From an uncultured archaeon (GTDB taxonomy: Archaea > Asgardarchaeota > Thorarchaeia > Thorarchaeales > Thorarchaeaceae): DNA of 32,000 nt. The notes below the pieces were generated by a model. That model saw nothing but the letters and a program-made list of their open reading frames with translations. It was not told where the DNA came from and ran no database searches. The stretch covers positions 308,075 to 340,074 of the forward strand of contig CAYHAA010000001.1 in the NCBI GenBank assembly GCA_964354495.1, given 5' to 3'. The translations under genes and the position numbers were made by a program. Every line of letters starts with the position of its first letter. Within the stretch, counting starts at the first letter, position 1. Positions 9,396 to 29,775 of the stretch are shown in pieces.

Positions 9396-10007
9396 TCAAC
9401 CTATCTGTTTCCATTCGAGCATTTTCATATCCTCGAGTGTATGAAGCGACTTCTGAACTTCCTTAGTATGTCTACCAAGTTGATCAGCGATGTTTTGCGT
9501 TGTCAACATGCCTTTGCACATCTTGGCAACATCATACGTATCTTGGCTCATTTGGCCGAGTCTCACAAGCATCGGCGATACTCTTCCTTTTAGCACTGGC
9601 ACAACAATCTTGGTTTCAGACGCGTGTCCGTCCTTTGTGATTTCATCGAGACTCTTGTTGAACTTCTCGAAAGGCTCCAAGTTGCCGTCCCAAGTCACAA
9701 GCATTGCCCCGTAGATGCTAACGAATTCGTTGTTGACCTCGGCTAGAACTGCCATTGCCGCGTTTCCGTCGTCTACCTTGTCGACAATTGCCGCAACTAT
9801 GACATTGTCCTTTAGGGAGAGACAGATATCAAAGGCACCAAAGTCAATCACATGGACTCTGTTTCCATAGCTCAGTTCTCGGCCAAACTGAATCAGAGCA
9901 GTCAGAAATCCACTGATCAAGTTCGGATCCATATCTGCTGACCCGTATTTTCTATCCAGAACACAAAGTCCACTGTCAGCGACCAATATGTAGACAGCTT
10001 GAATCAT
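9396..10007 (-). CDS. longin-domain protein with a C-terminal winged helix
   Basis: Longin signature 'IQAVYILVADSGLCVLDRKY...DPNLISGFLTALIQFGREL'; C-terminal 'VAKMCKGMLTTQNIADQLGRHTKEVQKSLHTLEDMKMLEW'. Confidence 0.8.
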   Translation of the reverse strand: MIQAVYILVADSGLCVLDRKYGSADMDPNLISGFLTALIQFGRELSYGNRVHVIDFGAFDICLSLKDNVIVAAIVDKVDDGNAAMAVLAEVNNEFVSIYGAMLVTWDGNLEPFEKFNKSLDEITKDGHASETKIVVPVLKGRVSPMLVRLGQMSQDTYDVAKMCKGMLTTQNIADQLGRHTKEVQKSLHTLEDMKMLEWKQIG

Positions 10008-20047: not shown

Positions 20048-20338
20048 GTGAAGAGTCATTCAGATGAAGCAATCAAAGAGCTAAGTCGAATCGAAGATGA
20101 AACACGCATTCTCGAGGAACTATCTGAGCCTCTGAAAAGGATGGAACGCCGGATCGAAGACATCTCTTCAAAACAATCGAGCAAATCATCAATTGGTGCT
20201 GAATACATCCAAGTGATAGTCACCAAGATATCCGCACTGCGCGACCTAATTGATAAGGTGGAAGTGGAGATGGACCAGCTAGATTCCAGAATCGGTGATA
20301 TCGAGTCACTTCGCTTCAAGCGTCGAACTCAGGAGTAG
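20048..20338 (+). CDS. small coiled-coil protein
   Basis: GGTGA RBS overlapping the upstream stop + GTG; two heptad segments; 96 aa. Confidence 0.65.
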   Translation: MKSHSDEAIKELSRIEDETRILEELSEPLKRMERRIEDISSKQSSKSSIGAEYIQVIVTKISALRDLIDKVEVEMDQLDSRIGDIESLRFKRRTQE

Positions 20339-22979
20339 AGCTAGCTGGTACAAGTTCTTCAACGACATCAAGAATGTGCCCAATGAAGGTCTGTGAAGAG
20401 AATGAGTCCAACGGTGTGACTCCTGCATTTACTTCCTTCAAGAATCTCAAGGCATCTGTAGGGGGTCTATCTTTTTCCAAGGTCACGAATTCGATTTGAT
20501 ATCTCTCACGTTCTTTGATAGCTTTGATGAATGGGATATGCTCCGCGTCATCTCTTCCCACGCCCCCTGAGATAACGAGTATCAACGTTGGCCGTGAGGC
20601 TCCAAAATCGTCCAGATATTCTGCAATGGTTCTATAGGCCCCGGCCATGTCTTCTCGACCTGCGCTATCTTTCACAGAATCGAGAATTGAGTAGATCAAA
20701 GACACAAGAACTTCCTCTGATTGAACGTCTCCAAGAAACTCCATATATGACCTAATCTCGCTACCATGTTGGACAGAGAACTTTGAAGGTCCCTCTGCGA
20801 ACGTAGCAAAGCCGAACCTGCCCTCAGTATGATTGTGTCTGAAGAGATTGATGACCAGCAATGCCCCTAGTGCCGCAATCTCTGATCTTGACGCATCCTC
20901 AGTGAGGTCATCAAGGAATACCTTCAACTCCCCTATTCGCCTTGCGAGAGGCTCAAGTTCTCTTGTTGCCGCGCGAATGGTTTTCAGTTTTATATCACGT
21001 TTGCTCATATCCTTACACGTGGAGATGCAGAGTACAACATTCAATTCGCGAAAAGCCTGATTTGGTCTTAAGAACACCTCATCTTCTGGAATGACACCAA
21101 TCTGATCTGAAACGAGCTCTGGCTCTGTCTGTGTCATATTGAGAGTCACCGGAAGCTTCTCTGAACCCACGAAAAGTCTGGAACTAGAACCAACCAGTCT
21201 TCCTCTTATCCGGTCAAGAACCTCGCTTTCATTTAGATGCATCCAGGAAAACAACTCTTGATTGGACGTTCGTCTGTCTGAGCAGTACGCCATCACAATC
21301 CTGTGGATATCAGAGATTTCCCCTTGGAACTTGACAATGTTGACAACAGAGGACGTACTGAATCCATAGATTTCTGCGTCAGTTTCTGAGATGACAATCA
21401 TTCTTTCAGCGCGCATATCATGCTCCCTCACACGACCCGCGCACCATCTCCCAGTCCTTGTGCCAAGTACTAGCACATAATCATCATTCAACAGATTTAG
21501 CGATTGCATATCGGAAGAGGCCATAAGGAATACCCCGGGGTTCGTCTTCGCAATCTCAACCCCAAAATGAAGAGCAGACACGAGTTCCTTGCGGTCTTCT
21601 ACCTGGAGACAGGAGAGCAATGCATCATCAAATTGAGCTAGGTGTGCTGGCAAGCCAAAGACGGGCCCGTCAAGTTTTGCATTTGCACACACAAGGGTCT
21701 GTAGTAGCATGCTGTCCCTCTTTGATATGCTCTCTGTAAATGCCTTCTTCCATCCTGAGACCATCACGGCACCGTTCTTTTCTAGCACGATTGAGATGCT
21801 TGTCCCTTTCTCGCCATTCGGCCCGCTCACCGTTACAACAACGCTATCCAGCTGGACCGTTCCTCCCTCGTCATCAACCATGTGGTCAACTGATACTACT
21901 CTCAGAATCTTCTTTGCATCAAGTAGTTGCAGGACTCGAATAATCTCATTCATGGCGGCTTTTCCAAGACTCTCTTCAGCCATGACCGATGTCTTGTTCT
22001 CTGTATATACTAGGAATGGGGGTCGCGGAGGCAGTAATGACAACATGTTTCCACCAAGGACTCTCTGCACTTCCTCCGGCGAGGCTGCCAGATTTCTGCT
22101 CAAGAAGTAACTGATTATTTCTGATACGCTATCCCCCAATTGCGTTTCAGGATATGATGAGGCAAACATAATCCGCTTTGACCAGAGCAGGTCCTTTTGC
22201 TCGCTCTTCATGTAATTGATTGAAGTCGATAGGGACGATATCGATGCACCTGCTGTAAGAAGCGTGCTATCTGGAATGTCAAGAAGACGAGTGATGGATT
22301 TTCCCCAGTCCTTCTGGCTTCTCACCTTCAGCACAAGTTTCGGAGCCTTTAGGCCTGCCTCTTTGAGAAGTACCAACCACTCAAGAAGCAAATCCAGATT
22401 CTCTGAAGAGGTGAGTTCCATGAACACAGGTCTCTCAGATTTGATGTGGTCAATCAAATCCGCGCGATTGGGCCCCTTTAGTGCGAGAGGCAAATTGGCT
22501 GCGCGTAGGATACATCCCCATCCTGGTGGTGTTCTCCGGTTCTGCCTCATGTCTTGCAGATGATAGACTCTAGGGCTTGTGGGTGGAACTGTTGACCATC
22601 GGTAGACAGACTCGGTATTCGCATTCTGTTGGGCAACCGGAAGGGCTGTTTCACCTAGATCAATCAGCGGGTTTGCAACGAGTAGATCGACCAGCCAACT
22701 TGACTTAGACAGCTCCGACGCATCTTGAGAGAAGTCGGTAAGAAATCTGGGCTTCTTTAGATACTCATAAGCCCTTCTTGGGACGTACCTAAAGGCTCCA
22801 GAATAACTGGCAGCAAAGTCATGAAGTTGATTTTCAACCATAGTATAGTATGAGAATGCCCTGTCAGGGTCGAATGTTCGTATATACGTTCCAGCGCGTA
22901 CGATGCCAAGCTGTAAGGACGCGTCCACGACAAAGAAGCGGCGGATTTCGTTTGCTTCAATGTCTTCCACAACAATCAT
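20316..22979 (-). CDS. fusion protein: inactive amidohydrolase-like domain + CDC48-N-like domains + degenerate vWA
   Basis: Colinear similarity to 23125..24630 (VVDASLQLG vs IVDAHHHMG; WSKRIMFASSY vs WSEKILFGTDY; QRVLGGN vs QRILGGN) and to 24694..25989 (LNVVLCISTCKDM vs FNAVLCIDTSGSM). ATG 22979 with GGAG RBS (ORF track TTG 22988). Confidence 0.75.
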   Translation of the reverse strand: MIVVEDIEANEIRRFFVVDASLQLGIVRAGTYIRTFDPDRAFSYYTMVENQLHDFAASYSGAFRYVPRRAYEYLKKPRFLTDFSQDASELSKSSWLVDLLVANPLIDLGETALPVAQQNANTESVYRWSTVPPTSPRVYHLQDMRQNRRTPPGWGCILRAANLPLALKGPNRADLIDHIKSERPVFMELTSSENLDLLLEWLVLLKEAGLKAPKLVLKVRSQKDWGKSITRLLDIPDSTLLTAGASISSLSTSINYMKSEQKDLLWSKRIMFASSYPETQLGDSVSEIISYFLSRNLAASPEEVQRVLGGNMLSLLPPRPPFLVYTENKTSVMAEESLGKAAMNEIIRVLQLLDAKKILRVVSVDHMVDDEGGTVQLDSVVVTVSGPNGEKGTSISIVLEKNGAVMVSGWKKAFTESISKRDSMLLQTLVCANAKLDGPVFGLPAHLAQFDDALLSCLQVEDRKELVSALHFGVEIAKTNPGVFLMASSDMQSLNLLNDDYVLVLGTRTGRWCAGRVREHDMRAERMIVISETDAEIYGFSTSSVVNIVKFQGEISDIHRIVMAYCSDRRTSNQELFSWMHLNESEVLDRIRGRLVGSSSRLFVGSEKLPVTLNMTQTEPELVSDQIGVIPEDEVFLRPNQAFRELNVVLCISTCKDMSKRDIKLKTIRAATRELEPLARRIGELKVFLDDLTEDASRSEIAALGALLVINLFRHNHTEGRFGFATFAEGPSKFSVQHGSEIRSYMEFLGDVQSEEVLVSLIYSILDSVKDSAGREDMAGAYRTIAEYLDDFGASRPTLILVISGGVGRDDAEHIPFIKAIKERERYQIEFVTLEKDRPPTDALRFLKEVNAGVTPLDSFSSQTFIGHILDVVEELVPASSTPEFDA

Positions 22980-23124
22980 CGAATACAACTCCGAGTGCTA
23001 AGAGCCAATTTGCAAGAGATGATATATGCCTAATGCAGACAGTAGTTTCTGCTAGCTTGAAAGCCCGTAAAGAAATAGTTTATCACTCAAACAGGCTGAA
23101 CAAGAATGGAGGACTAATCTGCAT

Positions 23125-24630
23125 ATGCTCATCGTCCGAGCAGTTGAGGACCAGCCATCAAGAGGCATAAGGAAAGGTGATGAGTTCAGGCTCTACATCG
23201 TAGATGCACATCACCATATGGGGAAAGAGAAAAGCCATAGAAACACGCCTTCGGGTGCCTACGCCTTCTACTCCCAATTATGGTTTGAGATGCAGAAGCT
23301 TGCTAAGGTCCTCAGAGAAGAGGACGCTCTTCTCTTCGAACCAATTGGAATAACAGCTGGTGATTTCGCCAATCGTTGTTTCAAAAGCCAAAAGAGTTGG
23401 GAGAGGCTGAATCATGGTTGGTTAATAGATAGAACTGTTGTATTCCCTTATACTGATGACTATTCCACCTCCGAATCAGCCAATGAGCCTTCGTTCAGAG
23501 TGTCGAATGATAAAATCGCAGGATGGACAACTCGTGCACCACACTCGACGCGGCTAATCGGATTCGCACGGGTCAATCCCCTGGATGGTACAGGGAACAA
23601 AAATATTGCAGTGAGCGAGCTCGAACGGAGTGTTCTGAGCCTTGGATTGCGCGGTCTAAAACTGCACCCTCTTGCACAGCTCTTTCTTGATTCCATCGAA
23701 GGTGAACTAACAAGGAACGTTGTGAAGCGAGCTGGTGAGTTAGGAATCCCTGTTATCTTCGATACGAGAAATATTGGCACCGTCATGCGTATCAAGAATC
23801 TTGTAGAATCGATGCGGAATGATCCCGACTGCGGAACAGCCATCAGGGGACTGAAGGTGATTCTCGCTCATTGTGGAATGTCCCCTGGTGATACACATCT
23901 TTTCGACGCGCTTCGTGACCCAGCGATCTTTGCTGAAACTTCAACGCTACATGACCTCGATGTTCCTGTTCTATTCGAATCTGCAATCGAGCGTCTGGGC
24001 CGATTCGGCACTCCATGGTCGGAGAAAATCCTCTTTGGGACAGACTACAGCTTTCTGTCCGTTCAGGCTGCTGATGTCATTCTCTACCTTCTCTCGCGAA
24101 AATTCTCTGGAACTCTGACCGATGCTCAACGAATATTGGGCGGGAATGCATTGATGTTGGTCCAAAAGCCTTTCGCAACTAAGGGTGGAGCTCCAACTCC
24201 TCCGGTCGAATATGTCTGTCTGGACCATGACGGGTCTAGACAGGTTCAGTTAGAGAATTCGCTGTTATCACTCATAAAACGGGATGTCTGGGACCTCTGT
24301 TCTCTCGATCTAATGCTGCCTCCGAATGGAACTTGGCCCGAACTGCTGCCTATTTCAAGAGGAGGTTTCAATGGTGTTTACCTTGACTCCTATGTGTTGA
24401 GTCTAAGGACACGAACGGGGGATAGAGAGATTCATGTCTGGATTCGTAGGGGCCCAGGCAGTTCTCTCACTTGTTCGCTCTTGGGTACGTCCGGGATGAT
24501 ACGGCTTGAAACCACTCAGAATGCGTCTCAGGGTATCAATCCCGTGCTGATGCGGTCTCTGAAAGACCATTCTATCACATTGAAGACAGGGAAGGATTTA
24601 CAGGATAATGTGTTATCATACTTTGATTAG
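23125..24630 (+). CDS. amidohydrolase-2-like metallo-dependent TIM-barrel hydrolase with C-terminal extension
   Basis: GGAGG RBS; IVDAHHH, GFARVNP, GLRGLKLHP, ILAHCG, AETS, ILFGTDY. Confidence 0.85.
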   Translation: MLIVRAVEDQPSRGIRKGDEFRLYIVDAHHHMGKEKSHRNTPSGAYAFYSQLWFEMQKLAKVLREEDALLFEPIGITAGDFANRCFKSQKSWERLNHGWLIDRTVVFPYTDDYSTSESANEPSFRVSNDKIAGWTTRAPHSTRLIGFARVNPLDGTGNKNIAVSELERSVLSLGLRGLKLHPLAQLFLDSIEGELTRNVVKRAGELGIPVIFDTRNIGTVMRIKNLVESMRNDPDCGTAIRGLKVILAHCGMSPGDTHLFDALRDPAIFAETSTLHDLDVPVLFESAIERLGRFGTPWSEKILFGTDYSFLSVQAADVILYLLSRKFSGTLTDAQRILGGNALMLVQKPFATKGGAPTPPVEYVCLDHDGSRQVQLENSLLSLIKRDVWDLCSLDLMLPPNGTWPELLPISRGGFNGVYLDSYVLSLRTRTGDREIHVWIRRGPGSSLTCSLLGTSGMIRLETTQNASQGINPVLMRSLKDHSITLKTGKDLQDNVLSYFD

Positions 24631-24646
24631 CTTGAACCTCATATTC

Positions 24647-24691
24647 TTTATAACAACACGAACAGATGAATTCACGTTCTACAAGAGGAGG
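24647..24691 (+). promoter_or_regulatory. TATA box (TTTATAA, 24647-24653) and Shine-Dalgarno (GAGGAGG, 24685-24691) of the N-domain-vWA gene
   Basis: Archaeal TATA consensus at a suitable distance upstream of a strong SD and the open frame. Confidence 0.5.
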
Positions 24692-24693
24692 CA

Positions 24694-25989
24694 TTAGCCA
24701 TCACCAAGAAACTCCAATTAGAAATCGTAGATGGCGGAGACCTTAGGGGCTTTGCTAATCTCCATCCAAGGACTGCCGATTCACTTGATGCAGACATTGG
24801 CTCAATAGTCATTTTCGAGGATCCCCAAAGTAGTTTCTGGGGAGCAGCAGAGATTCGAAAGAGCAATGATGCATCCGAAGACCGGATTGTGGTTGACACA
24901 CTTGTTCTCGAGGCCTCACTACTGATGGAGGGTGATACTGTCGAGGTCACACTGTATGATGCGGATATGGTAGCTCTCGAATATGTTGAGTTTGGACTCA
25001 AACCCCTTACCGAGAATGCCAATACAGAGGACCTAGTTTCAAGGGCTGCTGAGAAGGTCAGTTCACTGGAAAATATCATTGGCGGGCGCCTTGTCTACCC
25101 CGGAATGTCATTCAACTGGCCAGAGCTTGACGTCAAGGTTGAGATACTCAATACAAGACCGGCTCTATCCGGGAAGAGCTTTGCGAAGCTTGCCTTTGAA
25201 GCCCTTCGGGAACGAACTGGGTATGAGTTCAAGACTGTAGGTATTGCAACTCCTTTCAATGCAGTCCTATGTATCGATACTAGTGGCTCTATGAAGACAA
25301 CCGATGTCCCGGTCCAGGACATCGCTCATGCCCGTGAGGGTTTGAAGGATTTGGCTGGTGATAGTCCCGAAGTGCAGGCCTTTCTGGGACGTTTTGAGGA
25401 GGGCAAGAACGTTAGCCGTGCCGAGGCGGCAGCAATGGCAGTGCTTCTCTATCTCGCAGAGAAGGTCGGTCGCGGCTACGGTGAGAAGGTCGGAGTAATC
25501 ACCTTCGAAAAAGATGTCAGTGAGATGACCTTTCTGAACTCTGAGACTGGTGAGGCTCAACCATTCGTAGAATGCACAGGAAGAGAAAAGGCACTGGGTC
25601 TACAGATAATCAGCACTCATGTCGTGGACAAAGTGGAGGAGGGCGGAACGCTGACTGATATGGGGTCAGCTCTTGCAAAAGCCAGTGACATAATCGGTGA
25701 ATTCGGAAACCCCGAAAAACCGACAATGCTCATTATGCTCACTGACGGAATGACGACTTCGGGTCCACCTCCTCTGAAGGTGCTCAAGGAGAGGTTTCCC
25801 GATAAGTCGAAACTGGCGATATACAGCATTGGCCTAGGAGAAAGAAGCGAAATTGATGAGGAATTGATGCTGGCCATTGCTCAGTATGGAAATGGGACCT
25901 ACCGTCATGTGGATAATATGAGGGACCTGCTTGAATGGTATGGTAAACTTGCAGGTGAATTCGCAGTCGTAATACGTGGCGCCGGATGA
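24694..25989 (+). CDS. CDC48/NSF-N-like (double-psi barrel + alpha/beta subdomain) + vWA with intact MIDAS; DEPDC5/Iml1-N-like architecture; non-canonical start
   Basis: Frame open from 24670 and encodes LAITKKLQLEIVDGGDLRGFANLHP...EDRIVVD before the ORF-track GTG at 24889; MIDAS DTSGS, GTLTDMG, LTDG; YSIGLG; GNGTYRHV. Confidence 0.8.
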   Translation, partial: LAITKKLQLEIVDGGDLRGFANLHPRTADSLDADIGSIVIFEDPQSSFWGAAEIRKSNDASEDRIVVDTLVLEASLLMEGDTVEVTLYDADMVALEYVEFGLKPLTENANTEDLVSRAAEKVSSLENIIGGRLVYPGMSFNWPELDVKVEILNTRPALSGKSFAKLAFEALRERTGYEFKTVGIATPFNAVLCIDTSGSMKTTDVPVQDIAHAREGLKDLAGDSPEVQAFLGRFEEGKNVSRAEAAAMAVLLYLAEKVGRGYGEKVGVITFEKDVSEMTFLNSETGEAQPFVECTGREKALGLQIISTHVVDKVEEGGTLTDMGSALAKASDIIGEFGNPEKPTMLIMLTDGMTTSGPPPLKVLKERFPDKSKLAIYSIGLGERSEIDEELMLAIAQYGNGTYRHVDNMRDLLEWYGKLAGEFAVVIRGAG

Positions 25990-25996
25990 AATCAAA

Positions 25997-27151
25997 TTAA
26001 CGTGGTTCCAAGGCTTGAGCAAGCCCTTCGAGGGTTTCCAAATCCATTTCCTTGATTTGCTCCTCAGGTATTCCCTCCAACATCACCTCAGGAATAGAAA
26101 CCAGGATCGCAGCTTTTTCCTTCCCATATTTCTTTGTGAATTCAGCCATTCTGGGGTCTTCGGTTACTGCTTCTGGTGCGGGTACTTCAATTGGCTTTTC
26201 AACTGCCTTACTGTCACTTTTGCTTGTTGAAGCAAGTAATGCCTCTAACTCCTCAATACTGAGAGTCTTCAGTGTTTCATCTGAAACTGACTCTCGAACT
26301 TCCTTTGGCAGTTTTCTGATGAGAGCCTCGCGAGTTGGTCCTGCTGTCTTCTTCTTGACTGTTGTTACTTTGCGTACTTTGACAGTCTTCTTCTTCTTTT
26401 CCGGAGGGAGCGTTGCAGCCTCCAGCTTGGAAACCAACTCTCTAGCCGATTTGGGAGTCAATCGTTTGAGGTCTTCAGGCGGCAGAGTACCAATTACTTC
26501 CTCCGGCAGTTCGGCTAGGATCGATTCAACTTCCTTGGAGAGCCCTGGAACTTCAGGCTTTGCCTCAGAGGTCTTTCTCTCCTCAGTCAAAAGTATGGGC
26601 GTGGCTTCCAGCTCCTCGACCAATGCGCTCCTATCAATCTCAACATCGAAGTTGCTGGACCGCCATTTAAGGAACCTATTGATGGCATCAGGCCTCATCT
26701 TGATAGAAACGAGCAATTTGTTGATGTCTTCATCGGGCATGTCTGGGAAGTTATTCAGTATTGTATCGATACTGTCTTTGGATACCCGTGCCCATATTGG
26801 TCCATTCAACAGTCTTGAAAGGCCTGAGGCACAATGGGATCTTACCCAGGTGTTCGGGTCCTTCAGTCCTTTCATAAGGACCGGAATTGTGCGTGGCTGA
26901 TGATAGAATGTCAGTGCTTGAGCTGCTGCGATTCTAACATCTGCAACATCGTCTTCCATGATCTTGGCAATTTCATTCACAAGTGCAGGATCTGCTGCCT
27001 CAACCGCTGCAATCAAAGCCCGTTCCCGAACAGTATCCGATGTGTCTGCGAAAGCGCGAATGAGAGCTTTCATCTCTTTCGGATCTGTTCTGGCGAGAAG
27101 ACCAATCTCGTCTGTATTGAATTCCAATAACAGTCTTCTGGTTTCGGGCAA
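25997..27151 (-). CDS. HEAT-repeat protein with Lys-rich linkers and three C-terminal ~33-aa helical repeats
   Basis: GGAGG RBS + TTG; HEAT units VRERAL, DVRIAAAQAL, WVRSHCASGL; repeats listed under findings. Confidence 0.8.
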   Translation of the reverse strand: MPETRRLLLEFNTDEIGLLARTDPKEMKALIRAFADTSDTVRERALIAAVEAADPALVNEIAKIMEDDVADVRIAAAQALTFYHQPRTIPVLMKGLKDPNTWVRSHCASGLSRLLNGPIWARVSKDSIDTILNNFPDMPDEDINKLLVSIKMRPDAINRFLKWRSSNFDVEIDRSALVEELEATPILLTEERKTSEAKPEVPGLSKEVESILAELPEEVIGTLPPEDLKRLTPKSARELVSKLEAATLPPEKKKKTVKVRKVTTVKKKTAGPTREALIRKLPKEVRESVSDETLKTLSIEELEALLASTSKSDSKAVEKPIEVPAPEAVTEDPRMAEFTKKYGKEKAAILVSIPEVMLEGIPEEQIKEMDLETLEGLAQALEPR

Positions 27152-28193: not shown

Positions 28194-28907
28194 TTACTGC
28201 TCGTGCCCTACTAGCACATCCTCGGGGCGCGCAACAATCATGGTCATGCCTTTGATGTCAACTATCACAACCTTCTCTCCATTCTTGATTGGAGGCCCAG
28301 TTGTCCTCGCCCACCAGATCTCAGCGCCAGTCTTCACTTTGCCTCTTGGGTTGATGTCTGAAATAGCGTGGATATCAGCGTACTTCATCTGTGAATAAGC
28401 TGGCCACTTGTCGTAGTTTCGAAGGAACGCGAAATAGAGTGCCATCATGCCAATTACGGATCCAGCCATTATATATACAGTCAGTTTGTTCGTTGGATCT
28501 ATGAGAATTGATAGGAAAATGGCAATGCCGTAGACTGGAAAGAGTTTCAGCGATACTTTCGCATCCATGAAACCTCCCTCTACAAAACTGCTGCCACCTG
28601 TGAACACCATAAAGAGAATGTATAGTATGGCCCCTATCACGAACAACATCCAGTATGGAAATGTCACTGGCTCTGGGCTGTATATGCTGGTCATGAAAAT
28701 CTCCATGACAAAGAGGATGACTACTAATGGAACTGTGACTTGTGCCATCGCCTTGCCAGTTGCTGGTTCTAGCGTAATGACGAGTAGAGTCGTGATGATT
28801 GCGAAGAGTATCAAGCCAACTAGGGGATCCACGAGGAAAAGCGTCATGACCATGCTCAATGCTGAGAACATGATCATGACAAGAAAGATCTTGATCCATG
28901 CGTCCAT
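28194..28907 (-). CDS. NfeD-like membrane protein with C-terminal OB fold
   Basis: Multiple TM helices, then GKVKTGAEIWWAR..IKNGEKVVIVDIKGMTMIV; GGAGG RBS before ATG 28907; directly downstream of the SPFH gene. Confidence 0.8.
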   Translation of the reverse strand: MDAWIKIFLVMIMFSALSMVMTLFLVDPLVGLILFAIITTLLVITLEPATGKAMAQVTVPLVVILFVMEIFMTSIYSPEPVTFPYWMLFVIGAILYILFMVFTGGSSFVEGGFMDAKVSLKLFPVYGIAIFLSILIDPTNKLTVYIMAGSVIGMMALYFAFLRNYDKWPAYSQMKYADIHAISDINPRGKVKTGAEIWWARTTGPPIKNGEKVVIVDIKGMTMIVARPEDVLVGHEQ

Positions 28908-28932
28908 AATGACATCCTCCAATCATAGATGC

Positions 28933-29775
28933 CTACTCTTCGGGTGGTACCGTACCCTTGTTGGCTGGTAGCTTAAGTCCTCCCATTCCTGCTGAGATGG
29001 CCGCAGCAACGCCAGTAGTCAAGCCAACTTCTGGTATATTCGTCGGCACCATGATGATTAGATTGGCGTTCTTTGAGATTTCCTGCATGATGTTCCATGT
29101 ACGAAGGACAAAACCTACATGTGACTCTTCATATCTCTTTGCAGCCTTGAGCATGTTGTCAGCAGCTTCTTGCTCTGCCTGTGCTAGGATGATTCTAGCC
29201 CTCCCTTCTCTTTGAGCCTGAGCCTCTCTGCTCATCGCATCCTGAAGTGCTGACGGAATGACCACATCACGGATCTCAACACTGGTGACTTTGACACCCC
29301 AGTGCTCAGTCTTCTCATCGATGAGTTCCTGCAGGTGCTGAGCAATCTTATCCCTGTCCGACAGCAGCTGGTCAAGTGTCACCTTTCCAGTAGTCTCTCT
29401 CAGGGTTGTCTGAGCTCCTAGCTCTACAGCCACCGTATACCTCTCTACACTGAGTATTGCCTTCTCAACATCAATAACTCTGAAGTACATGACAGCGTCA
29501 ACAACAACTGGGACGTTGTCTTTTGTGAGCGACCTCTCTGTCTTGAACGCATATGTGAGTAGCCTCATTGAGACCTTCATTGCGATTTTGTCCAGTATTG
29601 GTGTCACCCAAATGACTCCCGGCCCCTTCACTGCCTTGTACTTTCCGAGTCTGAGGATTGCTACACGCTCCCATTCTTTGAGGACCTTTATCCCACTAGC
29701 GACAAACATTAGTAGAAAGAATCCGATTACAACGACGAGCGCTAACATTAACGTACCTGTATCGAATAACTGCAA
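28933..29775 (-). CDS. SPFH/band-7 (stomatin-like) protein
   Basis: N-terminal TM, EWERVAILRLG, GPG, TKDNVPVVVDAV, WGVKVTSVEIRDV, EAQAQREGRARII. Confidence 0.92.
   Translation of the reverse strand: MQLFDTGTLMLALVVVIGFFLLMFVASGIKVLKEWERVAILRLGKYKAVKGPGVIWVTPILDKIAMKVSMRLLTYAFKTERSLTKDNVPVVVDAVMYFRVIDVEKAILSVERYTVAVELGAQTTLRETTGKVTLDQLLSDRDKIAQHLQELIDEKTEHWGVKVTSVEIRDVVIPSALQDAMSREAQAQREGRARIILAQAEQEAADNMLKAAKRYEESHVGFVLRTWNIMQEISKNANLIIMVPTNIPEVGLTTGVAAAISAGMGGLKLPANKGTVPPEE

Follow-up and report, generated by a model that had tools for sequence, protein, structure and literature searches.

A selectively maintained fusion of amidohydrolase-like and Cdc48N-vWA-like domains without their metal sites in Asgard archaea

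The fusion gene described here lies in a 32,000-nucleotide stretch of DNA (the window) from an uncultured archaeon of the Thorarchaeaceae (Asgardarchaeota; assembly GCA_964354495.1, contig CAYHAA010000001.1, positions 308,075 to 340,074 of the forward strand). It occupies 20316..22979 of the minus strand (887 aa plus stop; ATG at 22979, stop codon at 20316-20318) and encodes, in this order, a pseudo-amidohydrolase, an extra domain, a Cdc48N-like domain and a von Willebrand factor A (vWA) domain devoid of its metal ion-dependent adhesion site (MIDAS). The protein was confirmed to be homologous along its whole length, far beyond chance, to both of its divergent neighbours, an amidohydrolase and a Cdc48N-vWA protein (N-vWA). 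Both metal sites are lost, and the gene is under purifying selection. It is fairly probable that the fusion is a real, selected, non-catalytic binding or scaffold subunit of an Asgard ligase-hydrolase-vWA system, its binding, its partners and its membership of that system being the conjectural part of this reading. A first-pass annotation made from the letters alone had placed an 887-aa minus-strand frame and a divergent gap of about 145 bp at these positions, and the coordinates held (gap at 22980..23124, 145 bp).

Homology, domain order and lost metal sites

Counted from the first TTG, the open reading frame of the fusion covers 20316..22988 of the minus strand; when ATG 22979 is taken as the start, the N-terminus runs parallel to that of the neighbouring amidohydrolase. 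The frame is open across 2.66 kb, and the same was seen in nearly all relatives. BLASTP aligned residues 7-325 of the fusion with residues 7-350 of the amidohydrolase (E = 4e-9) and residues 515-827 with residues 49-367 of the N-vWA protein (E = 8e-13). With alignments of 34 fusion orthologues (A1), 18 hydrolases (A2) and 18 N-vWA proteins (A3), hhalign matched fusion residues 14-409 to amidohydrolase residues 18-444 (E = 1e-29, probability 99.8), thus spanning the C-terminal extra-domain stretch, and fusion residues 462-864 to N-vWA residues 7-416 (E = 4.4e-36). These matches bore out the earlier proposal that a copy of the amidohydrolase, extra domain included, is followed by a copy of the N-vWA protein. 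An S363xD365 motif is retained in the extra domain, the corresponding S393 and D395 of the hydrolase being kept in 33 and 32 of the 34 fusions, respectively.

All four domains could be delimited on the minus strand. Residues 1-330 (21990..22979) form a (beta/alpha)8 amidohydrolase-fold barrel without metal ligands, as judged from structure alignment and hhalign, and residues 331-465 (21585..21989) an extra domain of beta-sheet and helices that hhalign aligned to the C-terminal part of the neighbouring amidohydrolase. They are followed by a double barrel resembling the Cdc48/p97 N-domain (residues 466-640, 21060..21584; hhalign and Foldseek) and by a vWA fold whose MIDAS is lost (residues 641-887, 20319..21059; VIA-align and motif table). 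The AlphaFold2 model of the whole protein reached a predicted local distance difference test score (pLDDT) of 89.1 and a predicted template modelling score of 0.81, which fits rigidly packed domains. In VIA-align, model residues 15-319 gave Z values of 16.8 with 4dlf_A (root-mean-square deviation, rmsd, 3.3; 224 residues aligned), 16.8 with 3cjp_B and 15.7 with 3nur_A (amidohydrolase-barrel range, Z 14-17), and residues 640-881 gave 17.6 with 4fx5_A (rmsd 2.6; 183 aligned) and 17.0 with 9doc_A. By this comparison, the N-half displays the (beta/alpha)8 amidohydrolase barrel and the C-terminal domain the alpha/beta fold of vWA proteins. Foldseek with the fusion model returned p97 N-D1 (2.2e-11) and, at rank 2, DEPDC5 (8.2e-11). 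The unfused paralogue superposed on p97 N-domain chains with template modelling (TM) scores of 0.66-0.78 (normalized by the target; rmsd 3.3-4.9), and its profile matched VAT-N at E 0.05-0.06; the double-psi barrel plus beta-barrel of the Cdc48/p97 N-domain was recognized, and the fusion aligns to the unfused N-domain over residues 462-640.

The fusion itself did not reach the gathering score of Pfam Amidohydro_2 (14.5 bits vs. 26.4; E = 0.03), and the homology of its N-half to amidohydrolases was therefore established through the neighbouring member, which passes that threshold with 47.4 bits. A search with the single fusion sequence against PDB sequences returned nothing at E up to 1, and NCBIfam matched neither the fusion, hydrolase and vWA protein nor the neighbouring genes of the cluster, save weak HEAT-type matches. 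Homologues of the fusion are named in databases just 'hypothetical protein' or 'VWA domain-containing protein'. No RNA run was listed as containing the 5.7-kb stretch, and only two sequencing runs of unstated kind, both from one study, shared 22-28% of its words.

The metal-binding residues were clearly different in fused and unfused proteins. Thus, H29, H31, K179, H181, H249 and D307 were invariant in the 18 unfused hydrolases, whereas the fusion of the window presented S, Q, I, R, V and S, respectively, at these columns. In the amidohydrolase half HHH has become SLQ, the KLHP and AHCG motifs are gone and GTD has become ASS; these changes hold in all 34 orthologues, where the ligand set is always replaced and at most one histidine of the HxH pair survives (8/34). 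The ligands expected of Amidohydrolase_2, namely HxH on strand 1, His on strands 5 and 6 and Asp on strand 8, are consequently missing as a set. In the vWA half the situation is the same. The MIDAS residues D203, S205, S207, T329 and D359 were invariant in 18/18 unfused vWA proteins, and in the fusion DTSGS is changed to STCKD, Thr to Glu and TDG to SGG, again in 34/34 orthologues; instead of DxSxS...T...D, the window fusion has S-T-C-K-D, E and G. The full MIDAS motif was found in none of the 34 fusions vs. all 18 unfused copies. The loss of every recognisable metal ligand, which the first reading of the sequence had claimed, thus held in the 34 orthologues examined.

Barrel invariants other than the ligands (D19, G25, W95, D98, P184, W266, S267 and N311) are retained in the fusions, and a fusion-specific, nearly invariant SYPETQxGD motif follows strand 8 at the former active site. 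Both features taken together indicated a pocket that was remodelled but remained under constraint, and it may now serve as a binding site.

When 1.84 billion representatives were searched with a profile of the fusion alignment (A1), only 159 proteins matched at E up to 0.001. Seven divergent full-length forms from this set were aligned to the catalytic and MIDAS columns, and six further long matches were inspected by a motif screen only; none of them was a fused form with intact sites, and none showed a full ligand set or a complete MIDAS in the expected place. Among the forms examined, all the fused ones were dead and all the split hydrolases and N-vWA proteins (18 + 18) were intact. The least decayed fused form was P0130 (889 aa, labelled Freyarchaeota/Jordarchaeia), in which the HxH is kept (DVHIH), the histidines of strands 5 and 6 are gone, Asn replaces the strand-8 Asp and the MIDAS is reduced to D-x-S; it is possibly an intermediate state.

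Selection, spread and age of the fusion

In pairs with unsaturated synonymous divergence (dS about 0.25-0.34), the ratio of nonsynonymous to synonymous rates (dN/dS) was 0.13-0.14 for the fusion, 0.08-0.11 for the hydrolase and 0.03-0.04 for the vWA protein. Calculated per domain, it stayed between 0.04 and 0.18 in each of the four domains of the fusion. This purifying selection indicated that the gene encodes a pseudo-enzyme and is not a pseudogene, as had been argued initially from the intact frame: the protein combines homology to an active enzyme, loss of the catalytic residues and selective maintenance. An intact fusion was present in 24/24 genomes of the genus, with 54-93% identity, and around 100 database clusters of 870-920 aa extend the family down to 33% identity.

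A profile search of 301 genomes drawn from the phylum served to survey the distribution of the fusion. Matches covering both halves were found in 66/70 further genomes of the family labelled f1, 1/1 of f2, 4/4 of f7 and 6/6 of f19, those of f19 spanning profile positions about 170-880. Frameshifted or missing orthologues, which the first-pass annotation had named as the outcome that would speak against it, were thus infrequent. The only clearly disrupted copy (G153:C3:785286-787923) carries two TGA and two TAG codons inside the match, with its first 113 residues encoded in a different frame, and reflects either genuine pseudogenization or a fault of the assembly. Among the 71 f1 genomes with a completeness of at least 80% (G000 included; close relatives are not independent), fusion and active vWA protein occurred together in 62, the fusion only in four, the vWA protein only in one (G218; 80% complete, 670 contigs) and neither in four. 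Absences, here and below, mean that the queries used gave no match in draft genomes.

Trees were quick, unrooted maximum-likelihood reconstructions with long branches and are indicative only. The N-halves of the fusions formed one clan against all unfused hydrolases (support of 100 in the SH-like approximate likelihood-ratio test), and the C-halves formed a clan of their own (85), distinct from those of the unfused vWA proteins (98) and of P3 (100), an unfused paralogue also encoded in the window. The inner branching order was alike in both clans of fusion halves. Distant fusions carry the source names Jordarchaeales, Freyarchaeota/Jordarchaeia and Asgardarchaeia ('Asgardarchaeum californiense'). 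The separate clans, along with fused dead forms in metagenome-assembled genomes labelled Jordarchaeia/Freyarchaeota and Asgardarchaeia, pointed to an old duplication and fusion instead of a recent local one, and the 'mirror-image duplication' of the first-pass annotation was not sustained as a local event. The mirror layout itself was encountered only in the taxonomic order to which the window belongs.

Active pair, divergent region and gene neighbourhood

The active-type amidohydrolase (501 aa; 23125..24630, plus strand; Pfam Amidohydro_2, 2.9e-12) and the Cdc48N-like protein with a MIDAS-intact vWA domain (24700..25989, plus strand, frame open from 24670; VWA_2, 1.7e-8) were adjacent and co-directional in the 18 loci read. 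Prediction of a complex between the two gave a median interface score (ipSAE) of 0.54 (runs 0.54, 0.37 and 0.57; best control 0.00), with a contact agreement of at least 53% and a partner pLDDT of at least 77. Of 80 solved complexes, 58 reach the ipSAE mark, as do 2 of 110 mismatched pairs, and only seven of the 80, plus both passing mismatches, reach it with a value of 0.60 or under; alignments made for this analysis were used, so that these benchmark counts hold only roughly. The values weakly support a hydrolase-vWA complex. The Rosetta-stone link that had been proposed from the fusion is compatible with the constant adjacency of the pair and with the weakly predicted contact, but fused and split forms coexist as paralogues within one genome and, since no fused form with intact sites was found, the classical contrast between orthologous split and fused genes is lacking.

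The unfused Cdc48N-vWA protein was more conserved within the genus than the adjacent hydrolase (86-97% vs. 63-92% identity); in the other genera of the family, wherever a match was obtained, its profile E was about 1e-220 to 1e-240. An open frame of 950-972 aa joining hydrolase and vWA protein was considered and rejected as a fusion; the two genes share the same frame, and in the window TAG (24628) and TGA (24667) lie between them. A later search gave a length of 439 aa for the N-vWA protein, whose frame in the window contains no ATG, GTG or TTG ahead of codon 74. The Ile of its conserved AITKK-type N-terminus is an ATC codon in 13/13 genus genomes (L013-L025) and in G025, a genome of a sister family, GGAGG lies 8 nt upstream of this ATC in 13/13 genus genomes, and the first canonical start would remove half of the N-domain in several genomes. 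All these factors taken together suggested a conserved ATC initiation codon, and the start of the N-vWA gene is probably the ATC at 24700 (window 24667-24702), behind GGAGG.

The divergent intergenic region between fusion and hydrolase (22980..23124 in the window) varied from 104 to 147 bp across 13 genus genomes. Alignment of these 13 regions revealed two TATA-like blocks, both conserved in 13/13: a GATATATGCnTAnTGC-type block at 23021-23039, some 45 nt away from the ATG of the fusion, and a AATAnTTTATCAC block at 23074-23086, about 40 nt ahead of the hydrolase ATG. Both look like archaeal TATA boxes placed back to back. The shared promoter suggested at first was thus weakened, the conserved blocks forming two promoter-like elements and not one. 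The arrangement suggests that the fusion and the hydrolase-vWA pair may be co-regulated. In three loci (L020, L022 and L032) the TATA-like block lies just 22 nt before the hydrolase ATG and GGAGG is missing, suggesting a leaderless hydrolase mRNA there and a leadered one in the window.

Within the genus, the gene order was GTPase, E2F-like winged helix-turn-helix protein, vWA protein (399 aa), P3, coiled-coil protein(s), fusion (minus strand), hydrolase, vWA, HEAT (minus strand), Rce1-like, NfeD and Band_7. In the window, P3 (17648..18877, plus strand) is an unfused N-domain-vWA paralogue with a dead MIDAS (BLASTP 4e-11 to N-vWA; own tree clan), the HEAT-repeat gene (HEAT_2, 1.4e-11) occupies 25997..27151 of the minus strand and the NfeD and SPFH/Band_7 genes 28194..29775 of the minus strand (Band_7 at 28933-29775), 5-6 kb from the fusion. 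A giant GCS2-type ligase begins 336 nt past the window end. The MIDAS columns of P3 read ExxAA, with S and S at ligand positions, in 13/13 genus genomes. The divergent arrangement, whose occurrence in other Asgard genomes was also a matter of the first-pass annotation, was kept with the order of the window in 13/13 genus loci and in G025, which retains the core Rce1-like, HEAT, vWA, hydrolase, fusion, 400-aa vWA and E2F-like. It did not extend to f7 and f19, where the fusion is not adjacent to the pair.

Outside this family and its sister, the same genes recurred in other combinations; in three lineages, Thor among them, the fusion lies within 3-14 kb of the ligase-hydrolase-vWA module. The hydrolase-vWA pair stands tail to tail with the GCS2 ligase in G029, G030 and G040; in the last two, labelled Jordarchaeia, about 7 kb separate the fusion from the ligase, and the fusion does not adjoin the pair. 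Three f7 genomes (G030, G040 and G097) and one of f19 (G064) have a Band_7 gene directly next to the fusion in divergent orientation, and fusion proteins of the f7/f19 type carry Jordarchaeales and Freyarchaeota/Jordarchaeia labels. In these f7/f19 loci (L027:3990-7957, L030:4236-7888, L037:7353-11221 and L038:7253-10961), Band_7 is 37-40% identical to that of the window. Two metagenome contigs of an Asgardarchaeia-labelled cluster (L039:1-17524 and L041:554-16397) contained, within 12 kb, hydrolase, Cdc48N-vWA, ligase, two genes of 190-220 and 778-791 aa, and the fusion; no Band_7 or HEAT gene was found near the fusion in these two loci. Their GCS2 ligase has 1047-1155 aa, the 778-791 aa protein is a beta-sandwich, and a protein of 1234-1804 aa follows the fusion, with weak PKD-like matches in L039, where Arf/Ras-like GTPase genes lie close by.

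A third layout was seen in G041, G079 and G043 (loci L034:8626-12572, L035:8453-12529 and L036:8983-13069), where HEAT immediately precedes the fusion on its strand (gap of 86 nt between open frames in L034) and the E2F-like and GTPase genes lie beyond the fusion. The loci of G041 and G043 correspond to the neighbourhood of the window minus two blocks, hydrolase-vWA and vWA399-P3-coiled coil, with the Rce1, NfeD and Band_7 genes no more than a few kb away on the side of HEAT; in G079 these three genes were not seen within the locus read (BLAST, ORF list). The active pair was found in none of the three genomes, which indicated that the fusion can outlast it.

Candidate role and comparison with known systems

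The fusion shares the (beta/alpha)8 barrel with Amidohydrolase_2 proteins (PF04909; COG2159/COG3618 type, e.g., LigI, LigW and ACMSD; structures 4dlf, 3cjp and 4i6k) and differs from them in lacking every metal ligand and in carrying the extra beta/alpha domain and the Cdc48N-vWA module. Dead subunits of the amidohydrolase superfamily that are kept for structure are known, namely PyrC', the inactive dihydroorotase-like chain of Pseudomonas aspartate transcarbamoylase, and CRMP/DPYSL. As in the fusion, their TIM-barrel fold has lost its ligands and is conserved for binding or assembly; they belong, however, to another branch of the superfamily and have no adaptor copy fused, whereas here both members of a pair were duplicated, fused and inactivated. 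Pairs of active and inactive paralogues such as MPN+/MPN- (Rpn11/Rpn8, BRCC36/Abraxas) offer a conceptual analogue, with a dead paralogue beside an active hydrolase. Their folds are different, and the dead fusion described here is retained even in genomes that yielded no active copy.

Among solved vWA chains, those of ArnB, which acts in archaellum regulation, are some of the closest by sequence to the unfused paralogue (profile E about 1e-7; structural Z 18.5 with the unfused protein, 15.2 with the fusion). ArnB has neither a Cdc48N-like domain nor a hydrolase half. Its structures are 5a8j and 8s05, the latter entitled 'an archaeal ortholog of the Sec23/24 core motif'.

With the unfused Cdc48N-vWA model (pLDDT 83), the eight best Foldseek matches were entries containing DEPDC5/Iml1 (1.3e-13 to 9.1e-11, about 425-480 columns). 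DEPDC5/Iml1 of GATOR1/SEACIT (9v0j, 9o5e, 8ae6 and 7t3a) presents the same order, a Cdc48/NSF-N-like domain followed by a vWA/Sec23-trunk-like one; its domains have been described as an NSF/Sec18-N-like N-terminal domain (NTD) and a Sec23-like SABA (PMC8534245), and by Foldseek this NTD-then-SABA architecture was found in both the unfused model and the fusion. Superposition on DEPDC5/Iml1 gave TM-scores of only 0.32-0.36 with an rmsd of about 11 Å, and at the level of the single domain the unfused vWA was closer to canonical vWA proteins (Z 21) than to DEPDC5/Iml1 (16.6). The SHEN, DEP and C-terminal domains of DEPDC5/Iml1 have no counterpart in the Cdc48N-vWA proteins, which end after the vWA domain. 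There was no Pfam match to IML1 at E up to 1, and DEPDC5 was not among the profile matches to PDB sequences at E up to 10. A likeness at the sequence level was accordingly rejected, the resemblance being one of fold and architecture, and we treat this model-based resemblance as a lead only. NPRL2-like longin proteins have been reported in Thor genomes, in a passage that names no DEPDC5 homologue (Liu et al., bioRxiv 10.1101/2020.10.19.343400). In the window, a small protein at 9396..10007, 10-15 kb from the DEPDC5-like Cdc48N-vWA genes, has a weak Longin match (E = 0.0099, below the cut-off) and a C-terminus resembling a winged helix-turn-helix.

In the explanation that we consider fairly probable, that of a non-catalytic binding or scaffold subunit, paralogues of a metal-dependent amidohydrolase and of its Cdc48N-vWA partner were joined end to end in an ancient fusion, and the metal centre of the hydrolase and the MIDAS of the vWA domain have both been lost. 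The product would be a dead, covalently joined imitation of the heterodimer of hydrolase and adaptor. It would act as the binding or scaffold subunit of a system whose other members are the active hydrolase, the vWA adaptor with its intact MIDAS and a giant amide ligase of the GCS2 type; ligand or partner proteins may be held by the remodelled former active-site pocket and by the N-domain/vWA surfaces, and in Thorarchaeota the fusion may cooperate with the HEAT-repeat protein and with the SPFH/NfeD membrane module. Several observations weigh against this explanation. The conserved pocket may also stand for residual or new chemistry. Four f1 genomes with the fusion, namely G041 (98% complete), G079 (97%), G043 (95%) and G250 (88%), yielded no active vWA protein by profile; the hydrolase was likewise not found in G041, G043 and G079, nor was the GCS2 ligase in G041 and G043. 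As the fusion is kept in G041 and G043 where the ligase-hydrolase-vWA system was not found, it is not strictly dependent on that system. The fusions of G041, G079 and G043 are the most divergent of the family (32-35% identity), so that their role there may have shifted. In addition, the neighbourhood inside one family is partly inherited gene order and not independent evidence.

These same four genomes bear on the possibility, raised by the first-pass annotation and unlikely in our opinion, that the fusion is an obligate inactive partner forming heteromers with the active hydrolase and vWA protein and modulating the hydrolase, the trio being co-regulated from the divergent region. The layout and the two promoter-like blocks kept in all the genus loci, the recurrence of that layout in the sister-family genome G025, and the 62 genomes of the family with fusion and pair together with four that have neither are in favour of it, and paralogous pseudo-subunits often do pair with active relatives, as Rpn8 does with Rpn11. 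However, genomes that keep the fusion when the active pair is not found make an obligate heteromer unlikely, fusion-only loci show the same neighbourhood with the pair missing, the fusion lies apart from any pair in f7 and f19, and in G029 (93% complete) pair and ligase were present and the fusion was not found. The HEAT gene directly upstream of the fusion where the pair is missing, and Band_7 as its divergent neighbour in f7 and f19 genomes and at 5-6 kb in the window, would fit instead a fusion fully re-purposed as cytosolic adaptor of a HEAT, Rce1-like, NfeD and SPFH membrane module, in which adjacency to the pair would be a historical leftover. We regard this as distinctly unlikely, given the two Asgardarchaeia-labelled loci, where the fusion sits beside the ligase operon and the pair without nearby Band_7 or HEAT, and given that the HEAT/SPFH neighbourhood in the Thor family may be mere conserved gene order.

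The remaining explanations concern activity. An N-half that is still an enzyme, with a metal-independent or differently liganded mechanism, would be consistent with the invariant polar residues D19, D98, N121, E278, D283 and N311 at or near the former pocket, with the single HxH histidine of some orthologues and with the full HxH of P0130. It is nonetheless very improbable, as the canonical ligand set is replaced in every one of the 34 orthologues, P0130 lacks the other three ligands, and none of the fused forms examined among the 159 matches has the full set. A decaying pseudogene with an accidentally open frame would account for the loss of all catalytic residues and for the G153 relative with internal stops and a split frame; the low dN/dS, the confident AlphaFold2 model and a frame intact at 33-93% identity, in around 100 clusters and in lineages with three class-level labels, reduce its likelihood to next to nil, and it was rejected on the basis of dN/dS and conservation. 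A broader scheme, to which we attach little probability, would be a writer-eraser-reader system in which the GCS2 ligase writes an amide-linked mark, the hydrolase-vWA pair erases it and the fusion binds it uncleaved at SPFH membrane sites, the Cdc48N-vWA half sharing ancestry with the NTD-SABA part of DEPDC5/Iml1.

Pseudo-enzymes and gene fusions are each well known. To our knowledge, however, no case has been described in which an enzyme and its adaptor were both duplicated and fused, lost their two metal sites and were then kept by selection across several Asgard classes, and a full-text literature search returned no paper combining these features. As for its meaning, the fusion would argue, on independent genetic grounds, for the hydrolase and the Cdc48N-vWA adaptor acting as a single physical unit, and it would tie this unit to the GCS2 ligase module. 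It also points to possible binding roles, with HEAT and SPFH proteins as candidates, that can be tested with recombinant proteins. Finally, with the N-terminus of DEPDC5/Iml1 as the best structural match of the Cdc48N-vWA proteins, the family may bear, through similarity of fold only, on the archaeal roots of eukaryotic nutrient-signalling scaffolds.

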